Source: Minisyncoccota bacterium
GTDB lineage: Bacteria; Patescibacteriota; Minisyncoccia; Phycocordibacterales; UBA5272
Length of the DNA: 64,000 nucleotides
Direction of reading: 5' to 3'
NCBI GenBank assembly: GCA_041651055.1
Contig: JBAZJW010000001.1
Span: 373,325-437,324, forward strand
Under the pieces are notes generated by a model. It worked only from the letters and a program-made list of their open reading frames with translations. It was not told the DNA's origin and did not search any database. Positions 34,621-56,944 of this stretch are shown in pieces (the stretch's first letter is position 1; each line of letters starts with the position of its first letter). A program made the position numbers and the translations under genes.

Positions 34621-35421
34621 ATGAAAAACAATCTCGTCATCGGTTCTGATGGTTTTATTGGAAAGCCTTTTTGTGATTTTTTAGAAAAAAAAGGTGAAGC
34701 AGTAACTCGTTTTGATATAAAGCGTGGAGCAGAAGAAGATGCTCGAATATCCATATTACCCCTTGAAGACATTGACTGTGTTTATTTTCTTGCGTGGGAT
34801 GTTGGTGGTGCAAAATATTTATACAAAGAAGATGCCCAGCTCGGTCAATTAGACTGGAATCTGAAACTTCTTTCCAACGTAATGACACAACTAGAAAAGA
34901 GTAAAAAACCTTTTCTTTTTATCTCGAGTCAACTTGCAGAAGAGCATGATACGGTTTATGGTGTAACAAAAAGATTAGGTGAAGTTTGGACCAGAATTAT
35001 TGGTGGCACGTTCATTAGGCAGTGGAATGTATACGGGCCAATGGAAGAAGAAAGTCTTCGAAGTCACGTGGTTGCCGATTTTGTCCACCAAGCATTAACT
35101 ACAAAAGAAATAAAAATGATGACGACAGGTGAAGAAAAGAGGCAGTTTATATATATTGACGATGTTTGTGAGGCTTGGTACAAAGCCCTAAATGAAAAGC
35201 ATAAAGGAATACATGATGTCACAAGTTTTGAGTGGGTAAAAATTATAGATATTGCAAATATTATAGGCAAGTTAACAGGTGCAAAAGTAATACCAGGAGA
35301 AAAAGTTGGATCCACGCCAATAACACCGATAAAAGGCAAGATTCCGGGATGGTCCCCTAAGGTAGAACTAGAGGAGGGTCTGAGGAGAACTATTGAGTTA
35401 TACAAAAAAATAAATGAATAA
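34621..35421 (+). CDS. NAD-dependent epimerase/dehydratase (SDR)
   Basis: LVIGSDGFIG Rossmann motif; YGVTK catalytic YxxxK. Confidence 0.7.
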   Translation: MKNNLVIGSDGFIGKPFCDFLEKKGEAVTRFDIKRGAEEDARISILPLEDIDCVYFLAWDVGGAKYLYKEDAQLGQLDWNLKLLSNVMTQLEKSKKPFLFISSQLAEEHDTVYGVTKRLGEVWTRIIGGTFIRQWNVYGPMEEESLRSHVVADFVHQALTTKEIKMMTTGEEKRQFIYIDDVCEAWYKALNEKHKGIHDVTSFEWVKIIDIANIIGKLTGAKVIPGEKVGSTPITPIKGKIPGWSPKVELEEGLRRTIELYKKINE

Positions 35422-36223
35422 AGTAATATCAATTATCACTCCAACTTTTAACAGTGAGAAGGCTCTCGAAAAATGTCTTCTCAGTGTTAAAAAACAGACA
35501 TACCAAAACATTGAACATATTGTTGTGGATGGTCTTTCGACAGATGGCACTGTGGAAATTTTAAAAAGATATGAAGGCACCTATAATTTAAAATGGATAT
35601 CAGAAAAAGACTCTGGAGTTGCCGATGCGATGAACAAAGGTTTTAACCTTGCGACCGGGGAAGTTTTTACATGGATTGATTCTGACAACTATTACTTAGA
35701 GGGTACTTTTATCGCAGAAGTGATGGCGGCTTACAACAATGACCAAGACGTTAACATGGTCTTAACAAACTGCCTATCTCAGTATGAAACCTCTGAAAAA
35801 AGAACTCTTGTAAATCCACAAAAAGTAACGTATGCCAAACTCTTAGCGGAAGGCAGTATGTTTACCCCAGAGTGTGTTTATTTTAGCAAAGATCTATTTT
35901 TTAATGCTGGAGGATTTAACCTTAAGAACAAGCTTCTTGCGGACTATGAGTTATGGCTAAACATATTCAAACAGAACCCGAAGTACGTAAAGTTACCAAT
36001 ACTTTCTACGGTGTATGTTTCAAATGAAGATTCATTACTTCACAGAAAACCCATTCTTGCCTACAAAGAAATGCTTAGAATAGGAAAAGAATATCACAGA
36101 GAAAGATTGCCTCAGATAATAATCTGGATAAACTACTATATATTTTTAACAAAATACCCATTTCTAAAATTTATCAAACGCCACAAGATTTTAAAAGATT
36201 TTTTTGTAAAGTATTTCCGGTAA
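35414..36223 (+). CDS. glycosyltransferase family 2
   Basis: ISIITPTFNSEKALEKCLLSVKKQTY...VVDGLSTDGT. Confidence 0.7.
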   Translation: MNKVISIITPTFNSEKALEKCLLSVKKQTYQNIEHIVVDGLSTDGTVEILKRYEGTYNLKWISEKDSGVADAMNKGFNLATGEVFTWIDSDNYYLEGTFIAEVMAAYNNDQDVNMVLTNCLSQYETSEKRTLVNPQKVTYAKLLAEGSMFTPECVYFSKDLFFNAGGFNLKNKLLADYELWLNIFKQNPKYVKLPILSTVYVSNEDSLLHRKPILAYKEMLRIGKEYHRERLPQIIIWINYYIFLTKYPFLKFIKRHKILKDFFVKYFR

Positions 36224-36334
36224 AAGCAGAAAAACTATTAAAGAGAAGTTTTTTGGGTACTGATTAAGGTTGACATTAATCAGAATACATGCCATAGTTT
36301 TATTCGTAAGTTCAATAAAGAAAGGAGAGCAACT

Positions 36335-36820
36335 ATGTGCTTCAAGGGCTTGGTTACAGGTAGACTTCCTCGCGAGGTATATATCTCAGGTCTCGAAAAT
36401 TTCATCATCTCCACAGTCGACTTCGTTCTCAGAAGAGGTCTCCAGTTCTTTCTGATTAAACGAAAAGGTGGGGCTTTCTCTGGCGAATGGTTCGTCGCTG
36501 GCGGCCGCCAAAACCGTGGAGAGGAAGAATTGACGGCTCTCCACCGCATCGCCAAGCGTGAGCTTGGTGTAAACGAAAAAGATGTCGTCACCGTCAGATT
36601 CTCTCATTGCCAGGATGTATGTAATCCTGCCAGCAAAAATGATGAAGGATCTCTTCCTGAATGGCATTCGAAGTGGCACTTCTACGTGGTCGAAGTGACC
36701 CCTGATTTCAAGCTGAAGCTTGATGAAACCTCTAGCGAGGGGCAATGGTTCACAGAACTTCCAGTCGAAGGGGTCCCGGAGCCCGTCATTCGCGCTCTAA
36801 GAAAATCAGGAATGATTTAA
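36335..36820 (+). CDS. gmm: GDP-mannose mannosyl hydrolase-like Nudix enzyme
   Basis: VDFVLRRG.LQFFLIKRKGGAFSGEWFVAGGR...EELTALHRIAKRELG aligns with E. coli Gmm/WcaH (LDFIVEN..GEFLLGKR...GYWFVPGGR...ETLEAAFERLTMAELG). ~52% GC. Confidence 0.55.
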   Translation: MCFKGLVTGRLPREVYISGLENFIISTVDFVLRRGLQFFLIKRKGGAFSGEWFVAGGRQNRGEEELTALHRIAKRELGVNEKDVVTVRFSHCQDVCNPASKNDEGSLPEWHSKWHFYVVEVTPDFKLKLDETSSEGQWFTELPVEGVPEPVIRALRKSGMI

Positions 36821-36850
36821 CAGGAACAAGGTCCACCTCAGTGGACCTTT

Positions 36851-37642
36851 TTATATAAGATACTGAATTGATTTTCCTGTAAAGATAACTTCTACCGCCA
36901 TGCCTGGATCTATACCCTGATACCCTTTTTTCGTATATTCAAAAATCAAATACTTACCGACGGGACCCATTGCCACAAGCAAGACCACATCCTTTACTAT
37001 TGCGTGTTCTAATTCCCTGTCTAGCTGTTTAGTGATTTCATCATACGAAGCAATAGCGTCAGATTCTGGTGTTTCTATGTAGACAATATTCTTCCACGGA
37101 AGGCTGCCATTACTTTTCAAGCGCTCAGTTGTTTCTCGTCTCGTTATACAAATAATTTTCTTATCTTGTATAACAGGGGCAATTACGTTCTCAAAATACG
37201 TATCATAATAAAAGTTATGGGCATCCATGTAACCTATTTTCTTAGGAAACATAAGAAAGAACATTACCTTAAGAGGTAACCACACGTTGAACTTTCCAAT
37301 CTTTTTTAATTCCTCATTTGAAAAATTAATAAACTGTGGGACAGATAATACATAGTTACTTTCTTGTTTGTACGATGTAACTATTTCCTTGATCATCGTC
37401 TTCAATCTCGGATTAAATGTATGATAGTGATTGTTTAAATCTAGTAGTAGGTTTATTTCCCCATCACCAAGACGGATAATAGATTTACCCTCCTGTGCTA
37501 ATTTAATAATTTCTTCTTTTGTATAAAAATGTTCACTGAAAGAAAAGCCCTTTAGAAAATACGTACACACATACACAATCACATAGAGGGGGTGTTTAAA
37601 TACATACCTTGATAAGAAATTAAAAATTCTTGTAACTGACAT
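36851..37642 (-). CDS. GT-D type glycosyltransferase (DUF1792)
   Basis: SIIRLGDGE matches the DUF1792 hallmark S.IR.GDGE. Confidence 0.55.
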   Translation of the reverse strand: MSVTRIFNFLSRYVFKHPLYVIVYVCTYFLKGFSFSEHFYTKEEIIKLAQEGKSIIRLGDGEINLLLDLNNHYHTFNPRLKTMIKEIVTSYKQESNYVLSVPQFINFSNEELKKIGKFNVWLPLKVMFFLMFPKKIGYMDAHNFYYDTYFENVIAPVIQDKKIICITRRETTERLKSNGSLPWKNIVYIETPESDAIASYDEITKQLDRELEHAIVKDVVLLVAMGPVGKYLIFEYTKKGYQGIDPGMAVEVIFTGKSIQYLI

Positions 37643-37652
37643 GGCGGAAGAC

Positions 37653-39416
37653 TTAGCTTCGTTTTGAAATTAAATAATTACCTAACGCTACATGTGGAAG
37701 ACCTGAATGTTCGAAAGTACGAAGTGCGTCTTCTGGCGTTTCTACGTTTGGTTCACCGTGCAAGTTAAAGCTGGTATTAAGAATACCACCTGAACCCGTT
37801 AATGTCTCATAGTGAGTGATGAGTGCATGATAGTCAGGGTTTACATCCTTCTTAACCATTTGTGGACGAGAGGTAAGATCGTATGGATGAAGTGCCGCAA
37901 TAAGTTCTGTATGTGCTAATTCTTTTGTCGGAAAAGTGATAGCCATAAATGGCGCATACTCATCTTTTTTCAAAACAAGGTAATCATGTCGTCGTTCATA
38001 GAGCATTGACGTAGCAAACGGCATCCAAAAGTCACGACCCTTTATCATTTCATTGATAAGCTTCACATTATCACGCGACGACGGATTCGCAAGAATAGAG
38101 CGGTTACCGAGGGCACGTGCACCCCATTCTGATCTTCCTTTCAATCGTCCGACGACACTGTTATTTGCAAGCAATTCTGCTACTTTTTTCTCCACAGTTA
38201 TTTCACTTTTTGGATCAAAATATTCTACGTCACAATGTTTACAAAACTCGTATTCATCTATTACCTTTTTTATTTCTTCATCAGAATATTCTGACCCAAG
38301 GTAGAGATTATTTATTTTCTTTAAACCTGACAAATCGTGATCATGTAACTTCGCATATCCATGCACCACGTCTCCAATGGCGATTGATTCATCTCCACCT
38401 GATGGCATAACAACGAGGGATCTCACTTCTTTCATCTCGGAAAGATATTGATTTGCCTTCACATTCATAAACACACCACCACCAACAACAATATCAAAAC
38501 AACCGTACTTCTTAATTGAAGCTCTAGCTAAATCTTTTATGATTTCTTCAGTTAACTTTTGTATTCCGTATGCAAGAGAATCGAAGCGGTGCTGATGATA
38601 ATCATGAGCGATAAGATATGGGGTCGCACGACGCATATCTATCGTTGCAACGAGCTGCATCGTATCTTCATCAAACCAGATTAACTCTTTCAACTTCTCA
38701 TATACTTTTTCACCGGAGGATTTTTTTGCATATGGTGCGAGACCCATCACTTTAAATTCATGCTCATTACGAGACATGCCCAGCAAATCTACAAATGACG
38801 CATACAGTAGCCCGAGAGAATTCTCACGTGCAAATCGATGCAGAACTTTAATATCTCCATTTTCAAAAAGATTGATTGATCCACAAAATGTATCCCCTTC
38901 ACCATCTAAAATAAGAATAAGCCGACGAGTGCGTACATCGTCAAGAAGCGGAATAGATGCCCAAGCATGAGAATCGTGATGTGCCATATTTACTATTTCA
39001 GCCCCAGGAAATTCATGAGCCAAAAACTTCTGAACAACTCCAGCAGGATTCTTAAGAGAGAGTCTCCAAGAATTAAGAGTTTCGTTTATCGTATATAATA
39101 AACCACTCAGTGGAATACGATCAATAACGGCTCGCATGAACCACACATTTTGTGTTGGTCGATTTCTATACTCGATAACATCTTGCTTTGTATTCGTTAT
39201 ATGAAGACCCAAGTCCATCCCATCAATAAAAACAAGCCTGAAATTCTCAATGCCATATTTCTTAATAAGGTATGCCAGTGCTTCATGTGGAAATCCTATG
39301 TACTTTTTTACACGAGTAATACGCTCTTCCATCATTGCTTCCACAATTTCACCATCCTTCATCAAAACGACTGTTGCGTCGTGACCAAAATTAACCCCAA
39401 GGAGATATTCACTCAT
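37653..39416 (-). CDS. carbamoyltransferase (NodU/CmcH family)
   Basis: YLLGVNFGHDATVVLMKDGEIVEAMMEERITRVK N-terminal Kae1/YgjD-like domain plus a C-terminal carbamoyltransferase domain. Confidence 0.8.
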   Translation of the reverse strand: MSEYLLGVNFGHDATVVLMKDGEIVEAMMEERITRVKKYIGFPHEALAYLIKKYGIENFRLVFIDGMDLGLHITNTKQDVIEYRNRPTQNVWFMRAVIDRIPLSGLLYTINETLNSWRLSLKNPAGVVQKFLAHEFPGAEIVNMAHHDSHAWASIPLLDDVRTRRLILILDGEGDTFCGSINLFENGDIKVLHRFARENSLGLLYASFVDLLGMSRNEHEFKVMGLAPYAKKSSGEKVYEKLKELIWFDEDTMQLVATIDMRRATPYLIAHDYHQHRFDSLAYGIQKLTEEIIKDLARASIKKYGCFDIVVGGGVFMNVKANQYLSEMKEVRSLVVMPSGGDESIAIGDVVHGYAKLHDHDLSGLKKINNLYLGSEYSDEEIKKVIDEYEFCKHCDVEYFDPKSEITVEKKVAELLANNSVVGRLKGRSEWGARALGNRSILANPSSRDNVKLINEMIKGRDFWMPFATSMLYERRHDYLVLKKDEYAPFMAITFPTKELAHTELIAALHPYDLTSRPQMVKKDVNPDYHALITHYETLTGSGGILNTSFNLHGEPNVETPEDALRTFEHSGLPHVALGNYLISKRS

Positions 39417-39494
39417 AATTATTCAATTATACCATACGCATGTTGGTCTGTATGAATTAAAGGTTTGAACAAAACCACACAGAGAAGCAGCCTT

Positions 39495-40286
39495 TTACCT
39501 TACAACTTTTGCCCAATCTTCCTCTGATTTTCCCGTACCCGTCTCAAAATCAACAGTGTTCTGTTTAACAATAAGAGGCACATACCCGTACAAATTAAAG
39601 TTAGTCTTAAATCGCGCCACGTTCGGTACCTGATCTGCCGTAAGACGAAGTGGTTGTGTAAATGGAAGAAGTTTCTTTGCTCCTTCAAGGGTCAAAATAT
39701 ACGCTCCAGCGTTGTACAATGGACGATAAAATCTTTTTCCAGAAGCATACCAGCTTATTTTCCTAGCAAAAAAGCTCCTGACTTCTTCGAAAATGGAAAG
39801 CGCAATTATGTACGGCGCTTTTATTATTGCATACAAAAAGAATAATGGTTTCTTTTGTATTGTTATGATAGTCGCAATAAACCAGTGATACAAAAAAGTA
39901 ATTCCGTCATAGCGATAATCAAACGACAGCCAATCCCATTTTTTATTCTTAGTATTAATTTCTTTTTCTATGATCAAAATAAAATCCGCGGGTAGCATAA
40001 TATCATCTTCCAGAATAACAGCGTATGGAATTTTTTCTTGTACAATTCTCTCATACACTAACGCATGAGCCACTGCACACCCCTTCTCACCAAAGTAGAG
40101 GGGTTTACCATGCTCCTCTATAGCACGCACAGCGTCATACCTTTCCACAACACGTGCGTCATCTCCATAAATACCATCAACAAATTCGTACTTCGCACCA
40201 AGTGCTTGTAGCTGCTTTTCGACAGCTTCTTTTTTCTTTACATCTATCGGCAAGTTGATGACAAAAATGGGAAATGATTGAATCAT
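39495..40286 (-). CDS. glycosyltransferase family 25 (LPS-type)
   Basis: FPIFVINLPIDVKKKEAVEKQL...YEFVDG matches the GT25 N-terminal pattern. Confidence 0.65.
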   Translation of the reverse strand: MIQSFPIFVINLPIDVKKKEAVEKQLQALGAKYEFVDGIYGDDARVVERYDAVRAIEEHGKPLYFGEKGCAVAHALVYERIVQEKIPYAVILEDDIMLPADFILIIEKEINTKNKKWDWLSFDYRYDGITFLYHWFIATIITIQKKPLFFLYAIIKAPYIIALSIFEEVRSFFARKISWYASGKRFYRPLYNAGAYILTLEGAKKLLPFTQPLRLTADQVPNVARFKTNFNLYGYVPLIVKQNTVDFETGTGKSEEDWAKVVR

Positions 40287-40292
40287 ATATCT

Positions 40293-41579
40293 CTATTTCT
40301 TATTAAGATTAAAGTAAAACAGCAGGGCGGAAAACGTATACGCAATGACTGTCGCAGATGCCGTCCCAACAATACCATATATAGGAGTTAACATATAAAT
40401 TAAAACTACATTTACGATTAAAGAACTGCCAAAAATCATAACCTGATGATGGTATTTATCTTTAACCCCATAAACGTTAATAAAAAAAGATATTAAAAAC
40501 ATAGCGGGTATAGAAAGAGAATAGACACGCAAAACTGGGACAGACTCAATAAATTTACTACCGTACAAAATTTTAACAGCTAACGGTGCGAATATTAAGA
40601 AAATAAAAAATATGAAAAATCCAATTCCTACATAATAAAACATTATTTTTTTTAAATTACTTTTTGACTCATCATTATCTTTAGTGGAAATATAAGCTAT
40701 ACGCGAAACCAGCGCGTTAGACAAAACACCAGCTAAAAAATTTGGAACATCCGAAATTCTAACTGCGGCAGAATAAATACCCAAAGTGTAAGCATTCGAC
40801 ACTGTCGCAAGAATTAATTGGTCAATACGAAGTAATAATTGCCAAAATATCAAAGAGGCAATACTTAAACGAATAGAATACAAAAAAATAAAAGAACTAA
40901 TAAGAGAAGGTAACCTAAAAGAATAAAAAACTTTTCTCCACTCTGACGATTTCAAAAAATACGTGCTAAAAATAAGACCGGCTAAAATTAAATCAAACGC
41001 TGAAATAACAATAAACCAAATTAGAGGAGCTTTGAGAAGCACAAAAGACACTTTCAAAATAAGCATGATGCCTGCATTAAGCATTTGTACAATTGAAACC
41101 AATTTTGCACGATTATTTACAATCGCATAAATTGAAAAAGTATTTAAGGACTGTAAAGAAATTGTGACAAGGATTATACTAACAAAAGTTGCAACGTCTT
41201 TTGGCAATACATACCATGCAGAAATAAGACCCATCAAAGACAATACTATATAAATATTAAACTTGTGCCCAAGGTATACTTTAAAATCTTCATGTTGGTG
41301 CTGACTTCTTACTAATTTCCAACCAAAGTAAAAATCCATTCCACTGATCACTGTCAAAAAAGCCCCAACATAATTTATAACGAAACTATAAAGACCTAAA
41401 TTTGTAGGGCCGAGATACCGGGAAACAATAATTACACTAATAAAGCTGGCTCCTTGTATAAAAACTTGAGCCAAAGTATACCAAGACAACTCCTTAAAAA
41501 GGGGCCTTAATAAAAGATTTTTAACACTAGAAACTAGTTTTGTATACATAATTACCTTCTTATACGCACATTGTAGCAT
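40293..41579 (-). CDS. oligosaccharide flippase (Wzx / MOP superfamily)
   Basis: 428 aa with about 12 TM helices; polysaccharide-biosynthesis-protein-like pattern. Confidence 0.6.
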   Translation of the reverse strand: MLQCAYKKVIMYTKLVSSVKNLLLRPLFKELSWYTLAQVFIQGASFISVIIVSRYLGPTNLGLYSFVINYVGAFLTVISGMDFYFGWKLVRSQHQHEDFKVYLGHKFNIYIVLSLMGLISAWYVLPKDVATFVSIILVTISLQSLNTFSIYAIVNNRAKLVSIVQMLNAGIMLILKVSFVLLKAPLIWFIVISAFDLILAGLIFSTYFLKSSEWRKVFYSFRLPSLISSFIFLYSIRLSIASLIFWQLLLRIDQLILATVSNAYTLGIYSAAVRISDVPNFLAGVLSNALVSRIAYISTKDNDESKSNLKKIMFYYVGIGFFIFFIFLIFAPLAVKILYGSKFIESVPVLRVYSLSIPAMFLISFFINVYGVKDKYHHQVMIFGSSLIVNVVLIYMLTPIYGIVGTASATVIAYTFSALLFYFNLNKK

Positions 41580-41617
41580 TTAGACTTGAATAAGGACTAT
41601 CTTTACAAATACCCTTC

Positions 41618-42430
41618 TTAAATTAAAGATTTTAATAAACCTCTTATTTTTTTACCCAAAATAACTAAAAAGAAAAACCCTCTCTTCCAGAGCTGAATAT
41701 GATTACTCAAAACTAAACTCTTAAGAAAGAAAAGGTTGCTACCAATAGCCAAAGATTCTGTACCATGTTTTCTGAGTCCTGTTACATTATTCAAATGCTG
41801 TCTGTAATCTTGTAAATATTCATCTATAAAAAATGGTTTAGCTGGCCAAATCGCTAACTGAATCCAAGAATCATGACTCGGTGTGTGTGGAGGGGCTGGC
41901 CAAATATTTTTTAAAAGGGAAGCTCTAAATGATGTAGCACATCCTAATATGCATGAACCCCATGTATAATACGAAAGCCTTCTTCTTTCCTTGTCATAAT
42001 AATTACTACCTATAAAATCTTTTAAGCACCCTATTGGTTTATTTTCTTCATTAGTAACCACCACTTTATTGTATACCCACTGGATTGATTTATCCTTATA
42101 TTTATCCATATGAAGTTGTATTTTATTTGAATACCAAACATCGTCGCAATCGCATAAAAAAATGATCTCACCGTTACAACGAGATATGGCTTCTGTAAAA
42201 TTCGAAAGAACTCCACGTTCTCGAAGGCTAGCAGACCAACGAATTCTTTTATCCTTACCCGCATATTCTGATAAAATATTTTGAGTATTATCCGTACTAC
42301 CATCATCACTAATAACAACTTCAATATTTGAATAAGTCTGAGAAAGCAGTGAATCTAACTGATCACGTATAAACCGTTCACTGTTGTAAACAGTCATAGC
42401 AACTGAAACAAGTGGATTTTTAATGCTCAT
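41618..42430 (-). CDS. glycosyltransferase family 2
   Basis: VSVAMTVYNSERFIRDQLDSLLSQTY...VVISDDGSTDNT. Confidence 0.7.
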   Translation of the reverse strand: MSIKNPLVSVAMTVYNSERFIRDQLDSLLSQTYSNIEVVISDDGSTDNTQNILSEYAGKDKRIRWSASLRERGVLSNFTEAISRCNGEIIFLCDCDDVWYSNKIQLHMDKYKDKSIQWVYNKVVVTNEENKPIGCLKDFIGSNYYDKERRRLSYYTWGSCILGCATSFRASLLKNIWPAPPHTPSHDSWIQLAIWPAKPFFIDEYLQDYRQHLNNVTGLRKHGTESLAIGSNLFFLKSLVLSNHIQLWKRGFFFLVILGKKIRGLLKSLI

Positions 42431-42469
42431 ATTTTATGATTTATAGACATGAACTCATACGTTCATATG

Positions 42470-43480
42470 TTACTGACGACACATTGTTACACAGATAATA
42501 TTAGATTTTCTCAAACATAACGATGAGTTAGAAAAAAGAATATTCAGGAATTCACGAACTTTCTTTATCATATGAAGTATCATTTTCAAAAAGACATACA
42601 TATGAAATTTTTCTGTTAAAATTCGTAATTTTGATTTTACATAACGAGGATATAAAACATCTCCATTTTTTGTAAAAAAACTTGTTCGCACAGAAAGATT
42701 TGGTATCTCTGGTTTTAATAAAGTACCAAAAAAAATATTATAAAAACCAAATGAGAAGAAAGAAGCTTTCAAGCCCAACATCTCAGCAAAGGAACTAATA
42801 CCTTTTTCAGAAAACCATGTCAAATGAACAGGAGGTAGATCTGTTCCCCATAATGTTTTATCGGGATGCCATGAACGGTTCGGAGTAGTAAGAATTAATA
42901 TACCTTCTGGACTAAGCAAAGTCATGGCATGTTCAATATATTTCTTAGGGTCATGAACATGTTCTATTAACTCAAGCATACAGATTGCATCATAACCACC
43001 CCCTATTCCTTTAAAACTAAAAAAATTTTCGCATACAAAATAATCACCGTACCTGCTGGTGGCTTTCTCTATAGCATTACTGGAAATATCTAAACCTGTG
43101 GCTTTATATCCTCCTTTAACTAAGGCATATGTCATGTAACCAAGACCACAACCAACATCTAAAATGTTACCGTTTTTCGTTATGTTTTTATCAATACTTT
43201 TTACAACGCTGTAATACATCTCCTCTTTAAACTTCAAAAACCTAAGAGGGTTACTTGAATAAAGAATTTCTTCAGCATATTCGTTATACCTCATATACCC
43301 TGGCGTATCTTTTTCTGAATAAATAAGATTATACACAGAACTCTCTTCTGTGTGTGGCGAAGACCATTTTGTGCCACAGGAAAAGCAAGAACATATAAAA
43401 TAAAAAGCCCCTTGAACATATCCTTCTATTTGAGATTCTTTTAAGATATTTTGACTGCCGCACGCTATACAAGTTTCCAT
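42470..43480 (-). CDS. class I SAM methyltransferase with an N-terminal Zn-ribbon
   Basis: CIACGS...CSCFSCG ribbon; ILDVGCGLGYMTYAL motif I. Paralog of 44564..45568. Confidence 0.65.
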   Translation of the reverse strand: METCIACGSQNILKESQIEGYVQGAFYFICSCFSCGTKWSSPHTEESSVYNLIYSEKDTPGYMRYNEYAEEILYSSNPLRFLKFKEEMYYSVVKSIDKNITKNGNILDVGCGLGYMTYALVKGGYKATGLDISSNAIEKATSRYGDYFVCENFFSFKGIGGGYDAICMLELIEHVHDPKKYIEHAMTLLSPEGILILTTPNRSWHPDKTLWGTDLPPVHLTWFSEKGISSFAEMLGLKASFFSFGFYNIFFGTLLKPEIPNLSVRTSFFTKNGDVLYPRYVKSKLRILTEKFHMYVFLKMILHMIKKVREFLNILFSNSSLCLRKSNIICVTMCRQ

Positions 43481-43626
43481 AATTAACCAACAGTATAAAA
43501 CAATAATTCATTTATCGCTATTATCGTCACATTTCTTTTCATTATTATATTAATACGAAAGTAGTTTTACCCATTCATAACATTATGGCATTAGTCTAAT
43601 TGAATATATGGTAAAATTAAAGCACA

Positions 43627-44574
43627 ATGAAAAACATAGCTCTCGTAACAGTAACCTACAACGCCGGTAAAAACCTCCCATTTTTCCTCCCCTCTCTCGT
43701 GCAAAATAAAGAGATAATCTCTCATGTTTACTTTGTCGATAACAATTCTAAGGACACTACACTCTCGACACTTGAGACGTTTAAAAAACTAGAAGAAGAA
43801 AGTTTTGATGTACATATTATTTCCAATAGAAAAAATTACGGGTACACACATGCGGTAAACAGTGGTATTCAAAAAGCTCTTGATGATGGATTTAAATATA
43901 TCTGTGTAACCAACAACGACATTGCTTTTGAACATGGATTCTTTGCCAAAATGCTAAGCGAGTTCACAGAAAACACCATAGACGCTCTCGGTGTACCAGC
44001 AAGTATCAATGAACACGACCTTGGTCTCGGCTATAGTTTGGACAGCACAACGTATGCGCCGAAAAAAGATCAACCAATAAAAAGAAAAGATATACAGAGA
44101 GAAATTCTCAAAAACCCCCTACCTTCAATCGACTTCCCTCATGGTGGCACCATTCTTTTCAGCAGATACTTTTTTGAAAATATCGGCCTCTATGATCACC
44201 ATTTATTCTTCGGTGGCGATGAACTAGATTTTTTGTATCGTGTCACCGCATACAATGCTGCACATGATACAAAAATAAAATGCGCCGTCTCGCTTACTTC
44301 TTTTTTAAAACTAGACAATCTCTCTCATCATAATAATGGTAATAAATTCATAAAAGCCAGAGGCATGCTACAAGGAAATGCTCGTGTACATTTGAAACAC
44401 ACATCCACACCATTTCAATCAAAACTTTATAGAGAGCAGCATTCGCTCATTCAATCATTAGCAAAAGGAAGCCTCATGAGATACATTGCACTTTATCTCT
44501 TTGCACTTCGTGGACTCTGTATAGAAATATATAGGTACTATCGAGATTCTATGGTACAAAAAATTACTTCGTAA
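43627..44574 (+). CDS. glycosyltransferase family 2
   Basis: IALVTVTYNAGKNL...YFVDNNSKD. Confidence 0.6.
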   Translation: MKNIALVTVTYNAGKNLPFFLPSLVQNKEIISHVYFVDNNSKDTTLSTLETFKKLEEESFDVHIISNRKNYGYTHAVNSGIQKALDDGFKYICVTNNDIAFEHGFFAKMLSEFTENTIDALGVPASINEHDLGLGYSLDSTTYAPKKDQPIKRKDIQREILKNPLPSIDFPHGGTILFSRYFFENIGLYDHHLFFGGDELDFLYRVTAYNAAHDTKIKCAVSLTSFLKLDNLSHHNNGNKFIKARGMLQGNARVHLKHTSTPFQSKLYREQHSLIQSLAKGSLMRYIALYLFALRGLCIEIYRYYRDSMVQKITS

Positions 44575-45568
44575 TTACAATACACATCGAGGAAGATCGT
44601 GAAGAAGGTGTCTTGTGTTTCAATCGAAGCTTTATGTACGCTAACAGCGAATGTAATCTTACACCGAGTAATTTCGATTTCCAACTATACACGACTTGCT
44701 TGGGATCAACGTCTCCACTCGCGAGCAGACGTGGCAAACTTGCCTGTATCTGCTCCATGGAAGAGTCTGCGCCATAGTCGAAGAACTTTGTTGTGTATGG
44801 AGTAAAATCAATAAACTCACATTTCTTACCAAAACTCTTTGCGACAGTAGAGAGACTTTCTTCGGCAAACCACCATAAGTGAACGGGCGGCACATCACTC
44901 TGCCACACGGTTCCTTGTTTAGATTTATTTTTATTTGGTGTCGTCATTATCAACGTACCTCCGTCTTTAAGCAGAGAAAGTGCGGCTTCTATAAAAGCTT
45001 TAGGATCTTCTACGTGCTCTATCAATTCTGTCATGATTACACAATCAAATAATTCTTTTTTATTCTTAGCCACCACAAACAAATCCCCTGCTTCATAAAA
45101 GTTTCCATATCGTTCTGTTGCCTTTGCCACAGCTTCTTTAGAAAGATCTAAGCCTGTCGTCGCATACCCCGCTTTATTCAAGCTGTAGGTTAAATACCCC
45201 AAACCACTTCCTATTTCCAAAACAGAAATATCTTTTTTATTTGGAAAGCTTTTTTGTAATGCTTCTCGTACTGCCCAGTAGGTATTCTCTAAATTAGCTA
45301 AAACATCAAGTGGGTTCTTCACTTTTTTTACAAGCTCCGCAAACCGGTGATACCTCATGTATCCTGGAATAATCTCGACTTGTCGATAAATGTGATTATA
45401 TATTCTTTCGTCTGATTTTGCAGGATCCACAAAACTCGCCTTACAATTTACACATTCATAAATATCAAACTTTGAATTTTCAATATAGCCAAGCATTCCT
45501 ATATACGTACGTTTTACTTCACCGTCACACAAAGAGCATTTTTTAGTATGCATAATAGTATTATTCAT
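44564..45568 (-). CDS. class I SAM methyltransferase with an N-terminal Zn-ribbon (paralog)
   Basis: CSLCDG...CVNCKA ribbon; VLEIGSGLGYLTYSL motif I. The domain order is shared with 42470..43480. Confidence 0.65.
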   Translation of the reverse strand: MNNTIMHTKKCSLCDGEVKRTYIGMLGYIENSKFDIYECVNCKASFVDPAKSDERIYNHIYRQVEIIPGYMRYHRFAELVKKVKNPLDVLANLENTYWAVREALQKSFPNKKDISVLEIGSGLGYLTYSLNKAGYATTGLDLSKEAVAKATERYGNFYEAGDLFVVAKNKKELFDCVIMTELIEHVEDPKAFIEAALSLLKDGGTLIMTTPNKNKSKQGTVWQSDVPPVHLWWFAEESLSTVAKSFGKKCEFIDFTPYTTKFFDYGADSSMEQIQASLPRLLASGDVDPKQVVYSWKSKLLGVRLHSLLAYIKLRLKHKTPSSRSSSMCIVITK

Positions 45569-45601
45569 GGGAATGATTATACCAATATTTTTTGGTCTAC
45601 A

Positions 45602-46948
45602 CTATCTCCCAAACAACCCCTTAAACCATGCGACGATTCGGGTGTCTTTTTGTGTGTGGACAACTCGTGTGACAGATGTAGTGCTGGCGACGATAGTGGA
45701 TGTCGCAGCAGATGCGTGGGGCACTGTTTTCACTATAACCTTTTGATATACACGAGCAGGTGCTTGTATGAGAATGCTTTTTATCGGCATGGTCGTAGCA
45801 ATCGTCGTAGTCGCAGCACCCAACACCAACCCTTCATCTTTAATGTATTTCGTCACTTCTTCTTGATTCGGAAAAAGAATTTGAACAACCGTGCCAGACG
45901 AAATAGTACTACTTGCGAATCCCATCGCTACACCAGAAAAATGTGTTACACCACCGGCAGCGAGTAATGTGTTTTTTGGAAAAGGAAAAGCAGAACCATT
46001 TATCAAAAGTTTCCATTGAGAAAAATCTAAGTCGTACGGGTTCGGATTCGTAATATCTACATACGTGCCATATTTGCCAGAAGCAATAGCACTGATGGCA
46101 ATATCTGGAGGCACGACACGCACCGTCATACGACCTGTACCAGCCACGTATCCATTCGTACCTTCCACTTGCGCGACGTACCTGCCGGCATACGCATACC
46201 GATACTTTGTCGACGTGCCGACGGCTTGTCCCCCATCACCAAAGGCCCATGTGCATGTGAGTCCATCAATAGTTTTGCCAGCGCGCGTCATACCATACGT
46301 ACTGAATTCTGTTTCAGCACCAGCGACGACGGTTTTTTCAAACGGCATATACAAAATAATATCAGGCGATGGTGGAGACATTTGTGCGACGGTCACTTGA
46401 TGCTCTGTCGTTGTGGTCGCTGTCGTATCTGTCGGAGTCGTTGTGTCGACGACAGCTGGCGCACTATTTTCTGATCCCGGTGTCGGCGTCGTTTGAATAA
46501 AGCTTCCGTTCACACGTGATAAAGTCATACCCTCTTTTGCTGCCGTATAGGACGAAAGAATGTCTAAGGAGACACCGTTTAGTTTTATTTCAATCGATGT
46601 AACACCAGTGTTCACTAAACTTATAGAACTTTTAAAAAGTGAACCATTGTATAGTGGGTAGTCCTGCAAAAATTTCGTCACCCCACTTACGGTCGAAGCA
46701 ATAATCGCATACTCTCCCGCATTAAGCGTCGTACCCCCTGAAAGGGGTGTAGTCACGATTGCTGCACCTCCTTTTATGGAAATAGTAAGCGCAGAAATAT
46801 CCACCGGTACTGTCGTATCGTTATACAATTCCACCCACTCTCTCCCTCCATCATCTCCTGTCGGATTAGACATAATCTCACTTATCAAAAGCGCATGTGT
46901 ACTCATGGTGCCGCTCATAAAAAGTGAAAGGATGAGGAGTTTTTTCAT
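45602..46948 (-). CDS. secreted lamin-tail-domain (LTD) protein
   Basis: Signal peptide MKKLLILSLFMSGTMSTHA. Two LTD-like segments (LISEIMSNPTGDDGGREWVELYN...ISALTI and YVDITNPNPYDLDFSQWKLL) and a T-rich linker. Confidence 0.6.
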   Translation of the reverse strand: MKKLLILSLFMSGTMSTHALLISEIMSNPTGDDGGREWVELYNDTTVPVDISALTISIKGGAAIVTTPLSGGTTLNAGEYAIIASTVSGVTKFLQDYPLYNGSLFKSSISLVNTGVTSIEIKLNGVSLDILSSYTAAKEGMTLSRVNGSFIQTTPTPGSENSAPAVVDTTTPTDTTATTTTEHQVTVAQMSPPSPDIILYMPFEKTVVAGAETEFSTYGMTRAGKTIDGLTCTWAFGDGGQAVGTSTKYRYAYAGRYVAQVEGTNGYVAGTGRMTVRVVPPDIAISAIASGKYGTYVDITNPNPYDLDFSQWKLLINGSAFPFPKNTLLAAGGVTHFSGVAMGFASSTISSGTVVQILFPNQEEVTKYIKDEGLVLGAATTTIATTMPIKSILIQAPARVYQKVIVKTVPHASAATSTIVASTTSVTRVVHTQKDTRIVAWFKGLFGR

Positions 46949-46952
46949 AGTG

Positions 46953-48788
46953 TTATGACTCCTCTTCTATAAGTTTACGCAAAACTTCTTCGGCTATTTC
47001 TTTTTGCACACGCTTATTTTCTTCTACCACCGTTTCTTTCTTTGTATCATGCGTGCGATCTGTATTTTCTGTTATCTGTCGACTGTCAGCTGATGACTGT
47101 CTATTCTCTTCCATTGCTTTTGCTAGAGCTTCTTTGAGTGATAGCGCCGGCTTTTCATCAAAGGTTTTTGGATATTCTATGCGAGAACGTTCTTCAGGTA
47201 CACCTTTTGTTGGTTGGGTACGCACTTGCTCTTGTGGCACACGCCTCTCTTCCGTATGCTGACGAGGTCTATCTTCTTGATGGCCACCTCTTTGGCTATT
47301 TGCGTGTGAAGGAGTGTCTCTTCGTGGATCCTGACTTCTTTCTCCTTGTACGCTCCCTTTTCCATTATCTAATGGCCTACTTTCTGGTTGTCTTCGTGGT
47401 GCAGGTGCATCGTGTCGGATTTCGCGCACTTTCATATCTCGCTCATCTCGTGGTTTTCCTTCGTCTCTTTTTGTTTCAGCTTTTTCTATTGGTTTGTAGA
47501 AGGCATTAATTTCTTCTTCAACTTCAGCGATTGGTTTACCATAGCTTTTACGCGAATAGGCAATAACCTCATCACTAAATGAGCGTGCAGGCTTTTGTAT
47601 TGGACCAAGAGTGTGTGCTGAGAACGGCTTCGAGCCTTGCCCATCAATCATCAAGCGAAGATAAATTTGAAACGCGGAGAGGTTCACAATGTCGTCCAAA
47701 ATGAAATATGGCGCAAATTCTTTTTCAAAAATTTCTGCATCAGTCGCACCAACACGAAATACAATCATGGTACCTACGTTTCCAAAGACGGCCGCCTTTA
47801 CCTCGTCTGTCATTTGTTCGACATACTGATGTGCAACGGTGAGAGCAAGATTGTACTTACGCGCTTCCGAAAGAATGTTTGCAAAAGATTCATTGGCAAA
47901 GTTTTGGAATTCATCTACGTACACATAAAATGGTGGTAACTTTTCTAGTTCGTATGGACCGACATCGGCACGAGACATGGCTGCAAGGTATATTTTTGTA
48001 ATCAAGAGTGAACCGATCAAATTCGCATTTCCTTCTCCAACTTTTCCTTTAGAAAGGTTCACGATAATAATCTTTTTTGTATCCATCGCATCACGCAAAT
48101 CAATAGATGTTTTTTGTTGTCCGACAATATTTCTAATCAGTGGATTGCCGACGAATTGTCCAACTTTGTTCTGGATGGCAGGTGCAGCTTCTGCTGCGAA
48201 CTTCTCTGTATAGGACGCATATTCTTTTTCCCAAAAATCTTTCACCGTCGGATCTGTCACATTCGAAACAATAAACTTACGATACTCTTTATCTACCAAC
48301 ATTCTATTCACACCGAGCAGACTTTGATTATCATTTTCAAGAAGAGCGAGGATAATGTTCGTCAAAATATATTCCATACGCGCACTCCATGCATCAACCC
48401 AAATCTTTTTGAAAGCCGCCATGATACCGTTTGCCACCAAGTGACGCTTTTCTTTTTCTACTTTTTCAAGAACGTTCAATCCTATAGGACTATCGACATC
48501 AAACGGAGCAAAGTAGATAACATCTTTTACACGAGATTCTGGTATGTGGTCGAGCAACTTTTCAGCAAGTGATCCGTGTGGGTCAATAACACAAACACCT
48601 TCACCGTTGTTGATATCTTGAATAATGAGATTCTCGAGAAGGGTTGATTTTCCCATACCTGTCTTTCCAATGACATAAGTGTGGCGAGTGCGATCGTTTT
48701 CTTTGATGCCGAAAGTAAGCTGTTTATTTCTGTAATCAACCTTACCGATGTAGGTTACTTTTTCTTTATGCGGCTCTTGATCTGACAT
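46953..48788 (-). CDS. VirD4/TraG/TraD-like P-loop ATPase (TraM-recognition/TrwB family) with a ~170-aa disordered R/E/Q-rich C-tail
   Basis: Walker A VIGKTGMGKST, DEFQNF Walker B region, HQYVEQ motif. Tail from residue ~440 is low complexity. Confidence 0.55.
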   Translation of the reverse strand: MSDQEPHKEKVTYIGKVDYRNKQLTFGIKENDRTRHTYVIGKTGMGKSTLLENLIIQDINNGEGVCVIDPHGSLAEKLLDHIPESRVKDVIYFAPFDVDSPIGLNVLEKVEKEKRHLVANGIMAAFKKIWVDAWSARMEYILTNIILALLENDNQSLLGVNRMLVDKEYRKFIVSNVTDPTVKDFWEKEYASYTEKFAAEAAPAIQNKVGQFVGNPLIRNIVGQQKTSIDLRDAMDTKKIIIVNLSKGKVGEGNANLIGSLLITKIYLAAMSRADVGPYELEKLPPFYVYVDEFQNFANESFANILSEARKYNLALTVAHQYVEQMTDEVKAAVFGNVGTMIVFRVGATDAEIFEKEFAPYFILDDIVNLSAFQIYLRLMIDGQGSKPFSAHTLGPIQKPARSFSDEVIAYSRKSYGKPIAEVEEEINAFYKPIEKAETKRDEGKPRDERDMKVREIRHDAPAPRRQPESRPLDNGKGSVQGERSQDPRRDTPSHANSQRGGHQEDRPRQHTEERRVPQEQVRTQPTKGVPEERSRIEYPKTFDEKPALSLKEALAKAMEENRQSSADSRQITENTDRTHDTKKETVVEENKRVQKEIAEEVLRKLIEEES

Positions 48789-48875
48789 GAAAATAGTATA
48801 CCAAGAATAGGTTTTAGGTGATAGGTTTTAGGCTGTAGATAGGGGTAGGAATATTCAATGAAACAATATTCAACA

Positions 48876-50093
48876 CTAGTTAGTGTGCAGTGCTGCCGGA
48901 GTGTAATGATTTGCAGGATCCCATAGCATCCATGAATCTATTCCAAGCCTCTCCCCTGCTGTTATCTGTGCTCGAACCATTTCTGCTGTATAGGTCGCCC
49001 CCATATCAAAGTCCTGATACCATGGTCGATACTTCGCACGAATAGTCGATGTCGCCTGCCCTGTACTACTTGCCACTTCATCTGCTATCTCTATTCCTTT
49101 TTTCATTGAATACGAAATGATTGGCCCAGGATTTGCTGCAGGGTTTTGATATCCCGCAGTGCCTGCATAAAAATGTGAAGGATAAATCATCGGGGCGACG
49201 TAATCAAATGTTTCAAGTGCTGTATGCATATCTTGACCGAGCACAGCGATGTCTACCTTGGTCACCATGATGATGCCGAACAAGTCTCCGGACACAGGTA
49301 TGCCGTCTTTACGAAGTGAGTCAGTGATGTAGTGATAAAACTCAGACACGATGCCAGGCTTATCAACTTTTGCCCTCTCCCCACTAATTGGAAATGTCAT
49401 ATCTGAAAGCGCTCCATCTGTAGGGAAGCGGATATAATCCAGATTCACCTCATCGAATCCACGAGCGTAAGAATCTTTTGAAATATTTTCCAAGTATCTC
49501 CACATTTTTTTTGAACCAGTATCTACCCATGGAATACCCTTATGATCTTTCCATATATCCCCTGTCTTCTTGGAACGAACAGCTTCTTCTGGATATCTCT
49601 TTACATACAAAGGATCCTGGAATGCTGCGATGCGTGCAATAACATAAATATTTTTTGCATGAAGTTCATCTAAAAATGCATCAAGGTCACGTATTCTTCC
49701 ATCCCACGAAACAAGCCCTGTATTATCTTTGACGTCAATAACCACTGAGTTGATTTCAGTATCGTCGATAAGTTTTACAAGTTTTGTTCGCACAGAAGGT
49801 GAGCCCGCCACCCAGCTCGACATATATATTGCCTTCACATGCTCTGGAGTTTTGATATGCGTAACGACACGCACAGCTTCTGTGGTTGTAGGTGCCGACA
49901 CTGTTTCATCTTTTACATTTGTTTGTGCAAATGCTTTAGCCATTGAGGATGTAGATGTCGCCAGATCTCCTCCATGTTTACTATACGCAACAGTTCCTAA
50001 CCCCTTTGAAAAAGGAAGATACTGATAACCACTATCTAATATCCAGAAAAAGGCTAATAATCCCGCCACGAGTCCTGCTGTTACTATCTTCAT
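48876..50093 (-). CDS. putative glycoside hydrolase of the DUF4015/GH-like TIM-barrel family
   Basis: N-terminal signal anchor; GFDEVNLDYIRFP motif typical of DUF4015 proteins. Confidence 0.5.
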   Translation of the reverse strand: MKIVTAGLVAGLLAFFWILDSGYQYLPFSKGLGTVAYSKHGGDLATSTSSMAKAFAQTNVKDETVSAPTTTEAVRVVTHIKTPEHVKAIYMSSWVAGSPSVRTKLVKLIDDTEINSVVIDVKDNTGLVSWDGRIRDLDAFLDELHAKNIYVIARIAAFQDPLYVKRYPEEAVRSKKTGDIWKDHKGIPWVDTGSKKMWRYLENISKDSYARGFDEVNLDYIRFPTDGALSDMTFPISGERAKVDKPGIVSEFYHYITDSLRKDGIPVSGDLFGIIMVTKVDIAVLGQDMHTALETFDYVAPMIYPSHFYAGTAGYQNPAANPGPIISYSMKKGIEIADEVASSTGQATSTIRAKYRPWYQDFDMGATYTAEMVRAQITAGERLGIDSWMLWDPANHYTPAALHTN

Positions 50094-50311
50094 GCCGATA
50101 CCGTTGTGTGCATTACAGGAGTGCTTTCGGTTTCTTGGTGTTCTGGATGGTCTCCGTGATGAATAACTTTCTTACGTAAATCAAGAGTGCTAATGAAAAG
50201 AAGAACGCCTGCGACAATAAAAGCAACATCTTTGAAAAGTCCTGGTATAAAAATCCATGGAGAGAGAACAAGGAGGATGGCGACTGCGCGTTTGATTCCG
50301 AGAGGTGACAT
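50090..50311 (-). CDS. small membrane protein, 2 TM helices
   Basis: 73 aa. Its stop overlaps the start of the downstream GH-like gene. On the minus strand the sequence runs TATACT, 10 nt, then ATG. Confidence 0.4.
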   Translation of the reverse strand: MSPLGIKRAVAILLVLSPWIFIPGLFKDVAFIVAGVLLFISTLDLRKKVIHHGDHPEHQETESTPVMHTTVSA

Positions 50312-50334
50312 AGTGAGACCAGTATACCTTAACT

Positions 50335-50364
50335 AGTTTTTAGTTTCCAGTTTTTAGTTTTCAG
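50335..50364 (-). promoter_or_regulatory. A-rich AAAACT box, copy 6 (minus orientation)
   Basis: Reverse complement of the 27-mer, 5 nt upstream of TATACT, which lies 10 nt before ATG 50311. Confidence 0.5.
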
Positions 50365-50559
50365 AGAATGCGAAAAGCGAAATCGGCAGATTTCGCTTTT
50401 AGTTTCCGCATTTCCTAACGAAGAACGACCAACGATTAACGAGTAACGAGAGCCTTCTATAATAGTCAGGAATATTCAATAACTTAATATCTAATATTCA
50501 AATCAAATGCATTGCATTTCTTTGAATATTGGTTATTAAAACATTGAATATTGTTGTTA

Positions 50560-53404: not shown

Positions 53405-53607
53405 TTGGTGGTGCGCGGTCCTGGATTCTCCGACAAGTTTCGTCTCGTCGCCACTCAACGAACTCGCCGGCCGCCGCTCGTGGTTTTTCTTGCTAGAAAA
53501 ACATCACTGCGCCCTTTCGAATCCAGACGAAACATGTGCAGACATGTTTCTGACCGCGCACTAAAAAGAAAAACCCCTCCTCTGTCGAGGGGGATTTTTC
53601 TTTTTAG

Positions 53608-53680
53608 TGCGCGGTCCTGGATTCGAACCAGGGACCGCTCGAGTATCAGTCGAGTGCTCTACCAGCTGAGCTAACCGCGC
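53608..53680 (-). tRNA. tRNA-Ile (anticodon GAT)
   Basis: Reverse complement GCGCGGTTAGCTCAGCTGGTAGAGCACTCGACTGATACTCGAGCGGTCCCTGGTTCGAATCCAGGACCGCGCA; anticodon loop CTGATAC. A terminator hairpin (CCCCTC..GAGGGGG plus T-run) follows at 53560-53607. Confidence 0.85.
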
Positions 53681-54799: not shown

Positions 54800-56633
<1,834 letters not shown>

Positions 56634-56944
56634 ATTTAATAGAGTGTGACAAAAGAAAAAACAAAAAAATGCACAATGTTTATGTAATGTATTGTGAAGC
56701 GTCACTTCAGTTCTTTTTTATGTTTAGAATTTCTAAAACAAAAAAGGAGCTGAACAGCTTCTATTAAAATTTCAAATGACTACAATTACTGCTCACTGCT
56801 TATGAGTAAGAAGTAGGACTATTCTATACTGTGCAGCACGTAAAGTCAAGCTTCTAATCAACAACACAAGCCATAACAGACAAACTTTTACAATATCCAC
56901 AGATATGCTTGCCATTTAAGGCTATTTTGATTAAACTCGTAGCA

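Follow-up and report, generated by a model that had tools for sequence, protein, structure and literature searches.

An anchorless VirD4-type ATPase of Patescibacteria and the envelope proteins encoded beside it

What does a type IV coupling ATPase do when no secretion channel is encoded next to it? Patescibacteria make up a large share of bacterial diversity and are seemingly attached to other cells, and their exchange with these hosts is largely unexplained. Nearly all of them keep a coupling ATPase that is unlinked to their type IV secretion system (T4SS) genes, and what it does is acknowledged to be an open question (PMC12102498). The same question is raised by a 64-kb stretch of DNA (hereafter, the window) from a Minisyncoccota bacterium (assembly GCA_041651055.1, contig JBAZJW010000001.1), in which the gene for a VirD4/TrwB-type ATPase lies among genes for a small membrane protein, a DUF4015 protein and a protein with lamin tail domains (LTD). 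The corresponding NCBI protein records are MFA5132124-MFA5132127, from a metagenome-assembled genome of Candidatus Paceibacterota, and the genes are arranged as follows (ORF, open reading frame; aa, amino acids):

50090..50311, minus strand: gene for a 73-aa small membrane protein (ORF call and hydropathy)
48876..50093, minus strand: gene for a DUF4015 (PF13200) protein of 405 aa (ORF call and Pfam)
46953..48788, minus strand: gene for a VirD4/TrwB-type P-loop ATPase of 611 aa (ORF call and Pfam)
45602..46948, minus strand: gene for an LTD-PKD-LTD protein of 448 aa (ORF call and Pfam)

These four ORFs, already proposed in an initial annotation, are all present in the ORF list of the window. 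The stop codon of the small gene and the start of the DUF4015 gene overlap by 4 nucleotides (nt; ATGA), making these two genes a putative translationally coupled pair, 87 nt separate the DUF4015 and ATPase genes, and the LTD gene starts 4 nt after the ATPase stop; the G+C content across the locus is unremarkable (0.41-0.45). The neighbours of the ATPase are, from hydropathy, predicted to be exported or membrane-anchored, and channel genes of a T4SS are absent from the annotated genes of the window, both as initially described. Thus, VirB4, VirB6 and pilin families were not annotated on any of the called genes, which span ca. 2.5-59 kb of the window, and no integrase, relaxase or repeat boundary was found near the ATPase gene.

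Identity and family of the ATPase

Pfam searches matched residues 28-347 of the ATPase to TrwB_AAD_bind (44.8 bits, cut-off 20.5), with further matches to DUF87 (33.8 bits) and TraG-D_C (24.2 bits, cut-off 22). In NCBIfam, the best matches were to VirD4/TraD families, none of which came near its curated cut-off, with E values of 2e-13 versus 2e-6 for VirB4 families. A profile built from 32 diverse homologues retrieved TrwB (4e-7), DotL/IcmO (4e-4) and HerA (0.7) from the PDB sequences, and FtsK was absent from its matches. In fold comparisons, the model scored highest with the C-terminal domain of VirB4 (17.3), followed by DptH (16.5), TrwB (16.3) and DotL (15.3), and lower with Cag-beta (13.2), HerA (11.8) and FtsK (6.7); by its modelled fold, the ATPase therefore groups with the VirB4/TrwB/DotL branch. 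The initial assignment to the coupling proteins, with FtsK as the alternative to be checked with hidden Markov models (HMMs), was thus upheld, since coupling-protein families were matched and no grouping with FtsK was found. An FtsK/SpoIIIE identity was ruled out by sequence and fold, as the protein has neither a gamma domain nor a multi-span N-terminus, and membership of VirB4 itself was not indicated, as the VirB4 N-terminal domain is missing. Its place in the VirB4/VirD4 branch of the HerA-FtsK superfamily, closest in sequence to the coupling proteins, is secure.

The conserved core begins at residue ca. 8 and extends to ca. 430. It includes Walker A (GKTGMGKST) and Walker B (YVYVDEF) motifs, whose residues are invariant in 32-48 homologues, and an all-alpha insertion in the nucleotide-binding domain (ca. 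112-236). No transmembrane (TM) segment was detected by hydropathy, there being no hydrophobic 19-mer above the threshold. The long disordered tail rich in R, E and Q that had been initially noted is borne out by the composition of residues 431-611 (E 15.5%, R 13.3%, K 8.8% and Q 6.6%, and also rich in P) and by the low predicted local distance difference test (pLDDT) scores, which fall below 50 at residues 444-549 of a model with a mean of 64.6. This tail, of ca. 180 aa, contains two conserved helices, at ca. 551-578 and 600-610.

The family is very large, with 22,566 cluster representatives at E<=1e-3 and 6,209 at E<=1e-30; the best 120 homologues are all at least 61% identical to the window ATPase, and core identity within Patescibacteria is 45-70%. 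A published survey (PMC12102498) counts 5,713 VirD4-type homologues, spread over 2,918 of the 3,035 Patescibacteria genomes; no more than 148 are near virB4, and its authors regard exaptation as possible. The window ATPase very probably belongs to the family counted there. The ATPase is a highly conserved chromosomal gene of Patescibacteria and not a mobile-element gene. We collected 80 species-level loci and added three from separate look-ups, to give 83 non-redundant loci with flanks of up to 8 kb on each side, in none of which we found VirB4, VirB6, VirB8 or a relaxase.

Many representatives of the family have an N-terminal extension of 350-450 aa with TM helices. In 28 of the 83 loci, the gene directly 5' of the ATPase encodes a membrane protein of ca. 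400-450 aa, here called F6, that has TM helices at its N-terminus and matches no Pfam domain (for instance, L050-L086; proteins P0297, P0306, P0321 and P0337). F6 is homologous to the N-terminal extension, and F6-ATPase fusions occur in 55 of 149 representatives. Since F6 is fused or adjacent to the ATPase in so many relatives, the usual form of this protein is a membrane module plus an ATPase. F6 is itself often preceded by SecD, SecF and a protein with Sigma70_r4 and HARE-HTH domains.

A neighbour-joining tree of the ATPase cores divided the 83 loci into a clade with F6 context (the sister clade, n=34) and a clade without F6 that includes the window locus (the window clade, n=49). The two clades differ in the genes flanking the ATPase, as follows (denominators are the loci with enough flank on the relevant side):

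F6 directly upstream: window clade 0/42, sister clade 28/34
Small two-TM (2-TM) gene upstream: window clade 33/42, sister clade 0/34
DUF4015 upstream: window clade 28/42, sister clade 0/34
LTD gene downstream: window clade 22/45, sister clade 1/31
All three partners: window clade 13/39, sister clade 0/31

The gene order noted in the initial annotation does, therefore, recur in other genomes, but in a single clade only and complete in a minority of its loci. In L050, an LTD gene lies downstream of the ATPase even in F6 context. Neither an F6 gene nor a gene of the sigma-like family F8 was found elsewhere in the window.

The two-module form extends beyond Patescibacteria. The F6 HMM matches (E 1.3e-15) the N-terminus of a 913-aa "DUF87" protein from a Bacillus subtilis plasmid (NZ_OX419581), whose core shares 27.7% identity with the window ATPase, over 96% of the core. 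Its gene adjoins a replication-relaxation gene and TcpD/TcpE-like conjugation genes, so at least one relative of the ATPase sits in a conjugation-type context. Likewise, the phage family phrog_5156 matches the ATPase at E 4e-70 and has the same two-module length; relatives occur in Bacillus phages (G gp156 and SPO1 gp27.4) and on plasmids (661 records). Separately, the alphaproteobacterial plasmid NZ_CP081110 from Sulfitobacter (L089) encodes an anchorless and tail-less relative of 395 aa, 41% identical to the window ATPase, which stands alone among transposase and recombinase genes; this setting suggests a horizontal transfer of the anchorless form beyond Patescibacteria.

Envelope proteins encoded beside the ATPase

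The 73-aa protein has, by hydropathy, two membrane helices within residues 4-47 and a C-terminal tail rich in His and Glu, and matches no Pfam or NCBIfam family. An HMM of the 2-TM family detected it in 34 non-redundant related loci, in every case on the strand of the ATPase gene. It is located 5' of DUF4015 or, where DUF4015 is missing, directly 5' of the ATPase, at a distance of 7 nt in L026 and 54 nt in L040. It also stays with the ATPase when rsmI, the next gene upstream in the window, is absent.

The DUF4015 protein matches its Pfam family (PF13200) over the complete profile (positions 1-313 of 313; E 8e-80, 268.6 bits) and PDB entry 4s1a, an uncharacterised protein, at E 5.6e-44. A hydrophobic segment at residues 1-22 is predicted to be a membrane anchor or signal. 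Nine acidic residues are conserved in 29 orthologues (D120, D123, D160, D183, D214, E215, D219, D270 and D297), and, judging from its sequence, the protein is probably a glycoside hydrolase-like TIM barrel and an active glycan hydrolase. Literature searches for DUF4015 retrieved one incidental mention only. In one relative, L029, an ORF of 155 aa resembling a type IV pilin (motif GFTLIELLVV) lies between the DUF4015 and ATPase genes.

The presence of two LTD modules in the fourth protein is confirmed both by Pfam (PF00932; two stretches, 61.9 bits, cut-off 34.3) and by two confident beta-sandwiches in its model. Between them there is a PKD domain (28.5 bits) that had not been mentioned in the initial annotation. 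From the N-terminus, the protein comprises a hydrophobic segment (residues 4-22; signal helix 2-14), LTD1 (20-153), a T-rich linker, PKD (197-279), LTD2 (284-369), an S/T-rich linker and an amphipathic helix (KDTRIvaWFKGLF, 435-446). This architecture is constant in 50 aligned orthologues, with an S/T-rich linker that varies, and conserved motifs are SNPxGxDxGxEWxE in LTD1, WAFGDGG in PKD and KDTRxxxFFKSLF in the C-terminal helix. The AlphaFold model contains three confident beta-sandwiches (mean pLDDT 81), and Foldseek retrieved only surface proteins with multiple immunoglobulin (Ig)-like domains, such as S-layer proteins, adhesins and phage decoration proteins. As modelled, the protein is thus composed of three Ig-like domains on flexible linkers, with a C-terminal helix that resembles, we infer, amphipathic membrane-targeting helices. 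A fused nuclease or other enzymatic domain, suggested by the link of LTD modules to extracellular nucleases in the initial annotation, was sought in Pfam, NCBIfam and PDB sequence searches and not found, and the model is entirely Ig-like. Our literature searches did not retrieve any co-mention of "lamin tail domain" and "Patescibacteria".

In most of the loci that contain the LTD gene, it starts within 12 nt of the ATPase stop. Further downstream in the window (29743-45568) there is a surface-glycan cluster of ca. 16 kb, encoding Wzy_C, a Wzx-type flippase, glycosyltransferases of types GT2, GT25 and GT-D, a carbamoyltransferase, an epimerase and two paralogous methyltransferases (334 and 336 aa), both with Cys-rich, zinc-ribbon-like N-terminal segments. 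In 30 related loci, the ATPase or LTD gene is followed by a glycosyltransferase gene of family F1. Other neighbours in relatives are housekeeping or envelope genes, for SecA, SecDF, a MurC-like ligase, a PBP5/YkuD protein and MurJ.

Transcription signals and other features of the window

In the initial annotation, the four genes were a single operon driven by a promoter with an AAAACT box. The elements that bear on this proposal are:

50321..50328, minus strand: extended -10-like element GGTATACT, 9 nt 5' of the ATG of the 73-aa gene, leaderless-type
48795..48802, minus strand: second GGTATACT, promoter-like, 6 nt 5' of the ATPase ATG
50335..50361, minus strand: copy of the 27-nt dispersed repeat AAAACTAAAAACTGGAAACTAAAAACT, the "AAAACT box"
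7474-7500, 17387-17413 and 18772-18798, plus strand: copies of the 27-nt repeat AAAACTAAAAACTGGAAACTAAAAACT
21565-21591 and 29175-29201, minus strand: other copies of the 27-nt repeat AAAACTAAAAACTGGAAACTAAAAACT
50469..50556, minus strand: AT-rich hairpin of 88 nt with TTGAATATT arms, directly 3' of the rsmI stop

The AAAACT box turned out to be one of six copies of a dispersed repeat (0 expected; one copy with one mismatch). All the copies are intergenic, one of them between convergent genes, and their flanks are not conserved beyond the 27-nt core. Five of the six have the same orientation as a TATACT and start codon that follow at variable distances. Because its distance from the -10 element varies, AAAACTAAAAACTGGAAACTAAAAACT does not qualify as a fixed -35 element; a regulatory or UP-like role is conceivable, or it may simply be a small dispersed repeat.

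Instead, the motif GGTATAMT is present in the window in 10 copies (3.15 expected), six of which sit 6-10 nt 5' of a start codon, while a scan of the window with a generic sigma-70 consensus did not show any enrichment (11 found versus 10.6 expected). Elements of this type precede the small gene, the ATPase gene and, at 45576-45583, the methyltransferase gene that follows the LTD gene, and are not found before the DUF4015 or LTD genes. The short distance between the -10 element and the start codon is consistent with transcripts that are leaderless or nearly so. Of 49 related loci, 32 have a TATA[AC]T-like hexamer 5-12 nt 5' of the ATPase start codon, indicating that the putative internal ATPase promoter is conserved. 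As the ATPase has a promoter-like element of its own, the four genes are probably not driven by one promoter only, and a simple four-gene operon is unlikely. The 87-nt gap contains, 5' of the second GGTATACT, two CTAAAAC motifs and two TTGAATATT motifs, but no significant hairpin (z = -0.2), so read-through from the DUF4015 gene is possible. Judging from these signals, the locus is best described as two units, the small gene with DUF4015 and the ATPase with LTD, with possible read-through between them.

The 88-nt hairpin (-27.9 kcal/mol; z = -6.6 versus shuffles) is terminator-like, or like a repetitive extragenic palindromic (REP) element, and is the upstream boundary of the cluster. Its arm motif, TTGAATATT, occurs 12 times in the window (1.56 expected), with four copies within the hairpin; six fall in the two intergenic gaps of the locus, one site being 48847-48873. 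TTGAATATT also appears at 2125-2218 and 5357-5372. Including the 88-nt hairpin, the motif builds long AT-rich hairpins directly behind gene ends (z -6.6 and -5.2). Terminator-like or REP-like elements are possible readings of these sites, as is a shared operator. Rfam searches of the gaps in the rsmI-murB region retrieved nothing credible, only chance miRNA models on the AT-rich hairpin; a gap of 509 nt in this region (fold z -2.3) holds a plausible ORF of 96 aa.

Several observations concern the window as a whole. GGTATAMT lies 6-10 nt 5' of many start codons, for instance at 26022, 27975, 39426, 45576, 48795 and 50321, and a TAnAnT hexamer lies 5-12 nt before the start of ca. 15 of 54 genes, which suggests, at the level of sequence, that leaderless transcripts are common in the source organism. 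Another dispersed repeat, TCGTTCTTCGTTAGG, has eight copies (0.15 expected), located at 2577-3001, 15010-15085, 16946-16960 and 50414-50428, and is found on both sides of a gene at 2587-2952 whose 121-aa product matches 23S_rRNA_IVP and, weakly, bAvd, a family often tied to diversity-generating retroelements. A 16S rRNA match at 54893-56640 (minus strand) covers 1748 nt versus the 1533 positions of the model, suggesting a 16S rRNA gene with an insertion of ca. 200 nt. It is followed 1.2 kb downstream by tRNA-Ile (53607-53680, minus strand), with an ORF of 138 aa between them; no 23S rRNA gene comes after, and murB is next. Lastly, a gene for a 114-aa protein with TfoX_N, a domain that occurs in competence regulators, is located at ca. 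16930-17280 (minus strand), between ABC transporter and Nramp genes.

Readings of the locus and known systems

The reading we favour, with a probability of about 0.45, is that the window ATPase is an "orphan" patescibacterial VirD4-type homologue in a lineage-specific anchorless form, which is partnered with envelope proteins and feeds a distant translocon. The soluble ATPase hexamer would be brought to the membrane by a small partner, as TraJ is by TraI of pIP501, and the 2-TM protein would be the best candidate for this role. The long tail, with its two conserved helices, could recruit a partner or substrate, as do the tails of TraD and DotL, and the ATPase would then feed a macromolecule, either DNA or protein, to a translocon whose genes lie elsewhere, the patescibacterial T4SS being the likeliest. 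Locally, DUF4015 might open the wall or a surface glycan, in a VirB1-like role (a possible replacement of VirB1 by other glycosidases is noted in PMC12102498), and the Ig-like LTD protein might serve on the surface as an adhesin or spacer, comparable to the adhesins of Gram-positive T4SSs. These functional statements derive from gene order, from the precedent of coupling proteins without a transmembrane domain (TMD) and from the composition of Gram-positive T4SSs. Functional coupling of the ATPase to its neighbours is plausible; tethering by the 2-TM protein, service to a distant translocon and wall-opening or adhesive roles for DUF4015 and LTD are, by analogy, likely; and a "stripped-down translocation module", as the locus was called in the initial annotation, is a hypothesis.

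Several results weigh against this reading. No VirB4, VirB6, relaxase or pilin gene was annotated in the window (ca. 2.5-59 kb) or in the 83 loci, so that the link with a T4SS is only inferred. Ca. Southlakia epibionticum depends on its T4SS (PMC10633639), but its t4cp homologue is reported to be non-essential (PMC12102498), which argues against an obligatory role in the T4SS. The 2-TM protein has no detectable homology to the TM hairpin of F6 (hhalign probability 0.3%), none of 269 ATPase homologues is fused to 2-TM, DUF4015 or LTD, and the confidence of the ATPase model is only medium. Moreover, only 13 of the 39 informative loci of the window clade hold all three partners, and rsmI, murB and secDF keep their position about as well as the proposed partners do. 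Since rsmI and murB are unrelated and kept in place nearly as well, synteny alone is no proof of a common function, and the conserved order may reflect slow genome rearrangement.

This last point leads to the main rival explanation, which we consider rather unlikely: the genes would be neighbours by synteny only, the ATPase being an exapted housekeeping protein and 2-TM, DUF4015 and LTD serving the wall and glycan genes around them, that is, murB upstream and the 16-kb cluster of Wzx, Wzy and glycosyltransferase genes downstream. Indeed, 26 loci retain the functionally unrelated rsmI in place and several retain murB, a glycan cluster occupies the window from 29.7 to 45.6 kb and glycosyltransferase F1 recurs 3' of the ATPase or LTD gene; the ATPase has a promoter-like element to itself, many loci of the clade lack DUF4015 and many lack LTD, and neighbours in the sister clade are SecD/SecF, Pgk, RecJ and MnmA. 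However, an ATPase-LTD junction as short as this (4 nt here and mostly up to 12 nt) commonly goes with co-transcription and translational coupling, the 2-TM gene remains beside the ATPase where either DUF4015 or rsmI is absent, and L050 retains LTD downstream despite its F6 context. It is also conceivable, if improbable, that the ATPase, 2-TM, DUF4015 and LTD proteins constitute a self-contained envelope machine that replaced the ancestral F6 and works without a VirB4-type T4SS; if true, this could be a minimal apparatus, a motor plus a surface, moving DNA or protein between the episymbiont and its host.

Two further explanations take the ATPase as a DNA motor, and we give little credence to either. 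In one, the locus would be a DNA-uptake module supplying nucleotides to an organism unable to make them, with LTD binding DNA, DUF4015 clearing glycan and the ATPase pulling DNA in via ComEC or another channel. LTD does occur in archaeal ComA-like and thermonuclease proteins tied to extracellular DNA metabolism (PMC5118699), the ATPase belongs to a family of DNA translocases and the window encodes a TfoX_N protein. Against this, the LTD protein lacks nuclease, ComEA and ComEC domains, its fold is generically Ig-like with structural matches among adhesins and S-layer proteins, and ComEC was found neither among the annotated genes of the window nor in related loci. Nor are coupling proteins known to drive import, except in the T4SS-based ComB systems, which need VirB4 and VirB6. 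In the other, the coupling-protein fold would have been exapted as an FtsK-like or other housekeeping DNA motor, for segregation of the chromosome, for repair or for some other essential DNA transaction in the cytoplasm. In its favour are the very high conservation of the ATPase, its near-universal presence in the phylum, its housekeeping genomic context, with ftsA-ftsZ in the same window, and the exaptation regarded as possible in PMC12102498; but the missing gamma domain and multi-span N-terminus, the homologue reported as non-essential in Ca. S. epibionticum and the mention of FtsK itself in papers on the saccharibacterium TM7x argue otherwise. Finally, it is very improbable that the locus is what is left of a conjugative or phage element after its integration, or that the ATPase serves in anti-phage defence. 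Its relatives on plasmids and in Bacillus phages, including phrog_5156, and weak PADLOC matches (mad8, 2.8e-18; HerA; DndH) point that way, but the surroundings contain no integrase, relaxase or repeat boundary and have ordinary G+C content, the same chromosomal context is seen across dozens of species, and the neighbour-joining tree splits by the lineage names of the records and by gene context. A defence-system assignment was rejected because the PADLOC matches are at superfamily level and on the ATPase only, with none on the partner genes.

Orphan VirD4-type genes of Patescibacteria, coupling proteins without a TMD and the annotations of all four proteins are already known. Within the literature searched, the F6 module, split from or fused to the ATPase, with its occurrence in a plasmid protein and a phage family, appears to be new, as does the anchorless clade and its 2-TM/DUF4015/LTD neighbourhood with a conserved putative leaderless promoter inside it. 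For the open question of the unlinked coupling ATPase, the locus thus provides several handles: a split or fused F6-ATPase family, a clade in which F6 is gone from the locus, and a recurrent set of envelope partners that this clade has acquired. If these partners are functional, they point to the site of action of the ATPase and provide candidates for interaction; if not, they are a case of ordinary conserved synteny in small genomes that rearrange slowly.

Among characterised systems, the coupling proteins without a TMD that work with small membrane partners are a recognised subfamily, represented by TraJ with TraI of pIP501 (PMC7434980). Like them, the window ATPase has a VirD4/TrwB-type domain with an all-alpha insertion and no N-terminal anchor, and its locus encodes a small membrane protein nearby, a candidate tether. 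Unlike TraJ, it is chromosomal, near-universal in its phylum and very conserved, carries a long disordered tail rich in R, E, K and Q, is predicted to be co-transcribed with an exported Ig-like protein, and is encoded in a locus without relaxase, oriT or T4SS channel genes. The orphan homologues of Quinonero-Coronel et al. 2025 (PMC12102498) are from the same phylum and, in the consulted parts of that paper, are likewise far from virB4 and without a relaxase; the split or fusion of F6, the anchorless clade and the link with 2-TM, DUF4015 and LTD are not described in those parts.

The F6-ATPase proteins share a homologous core with the window protein, which lacks their N-terminal module of ca. 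400 aa. In contrast to VirB4 (C-terminal ATPase domain, 4ag5), it does not have the VirB4 N-terminal domain, and VirB4 families score much lower by sequence. Among proteins of solved structure, TrwB of R388 and DotL/IcmO of Legionella are its best relatives in the sequence-profile search and rank with the best in fold comparisons, although identity in structural alignments is only 11-12%, the window ATPase has no TMD and its genomic setting is different. The C-terminal tails of DotL and TraD are partner-binding regions and, by analogy, the tail of the window ATPase may also bind a partner.

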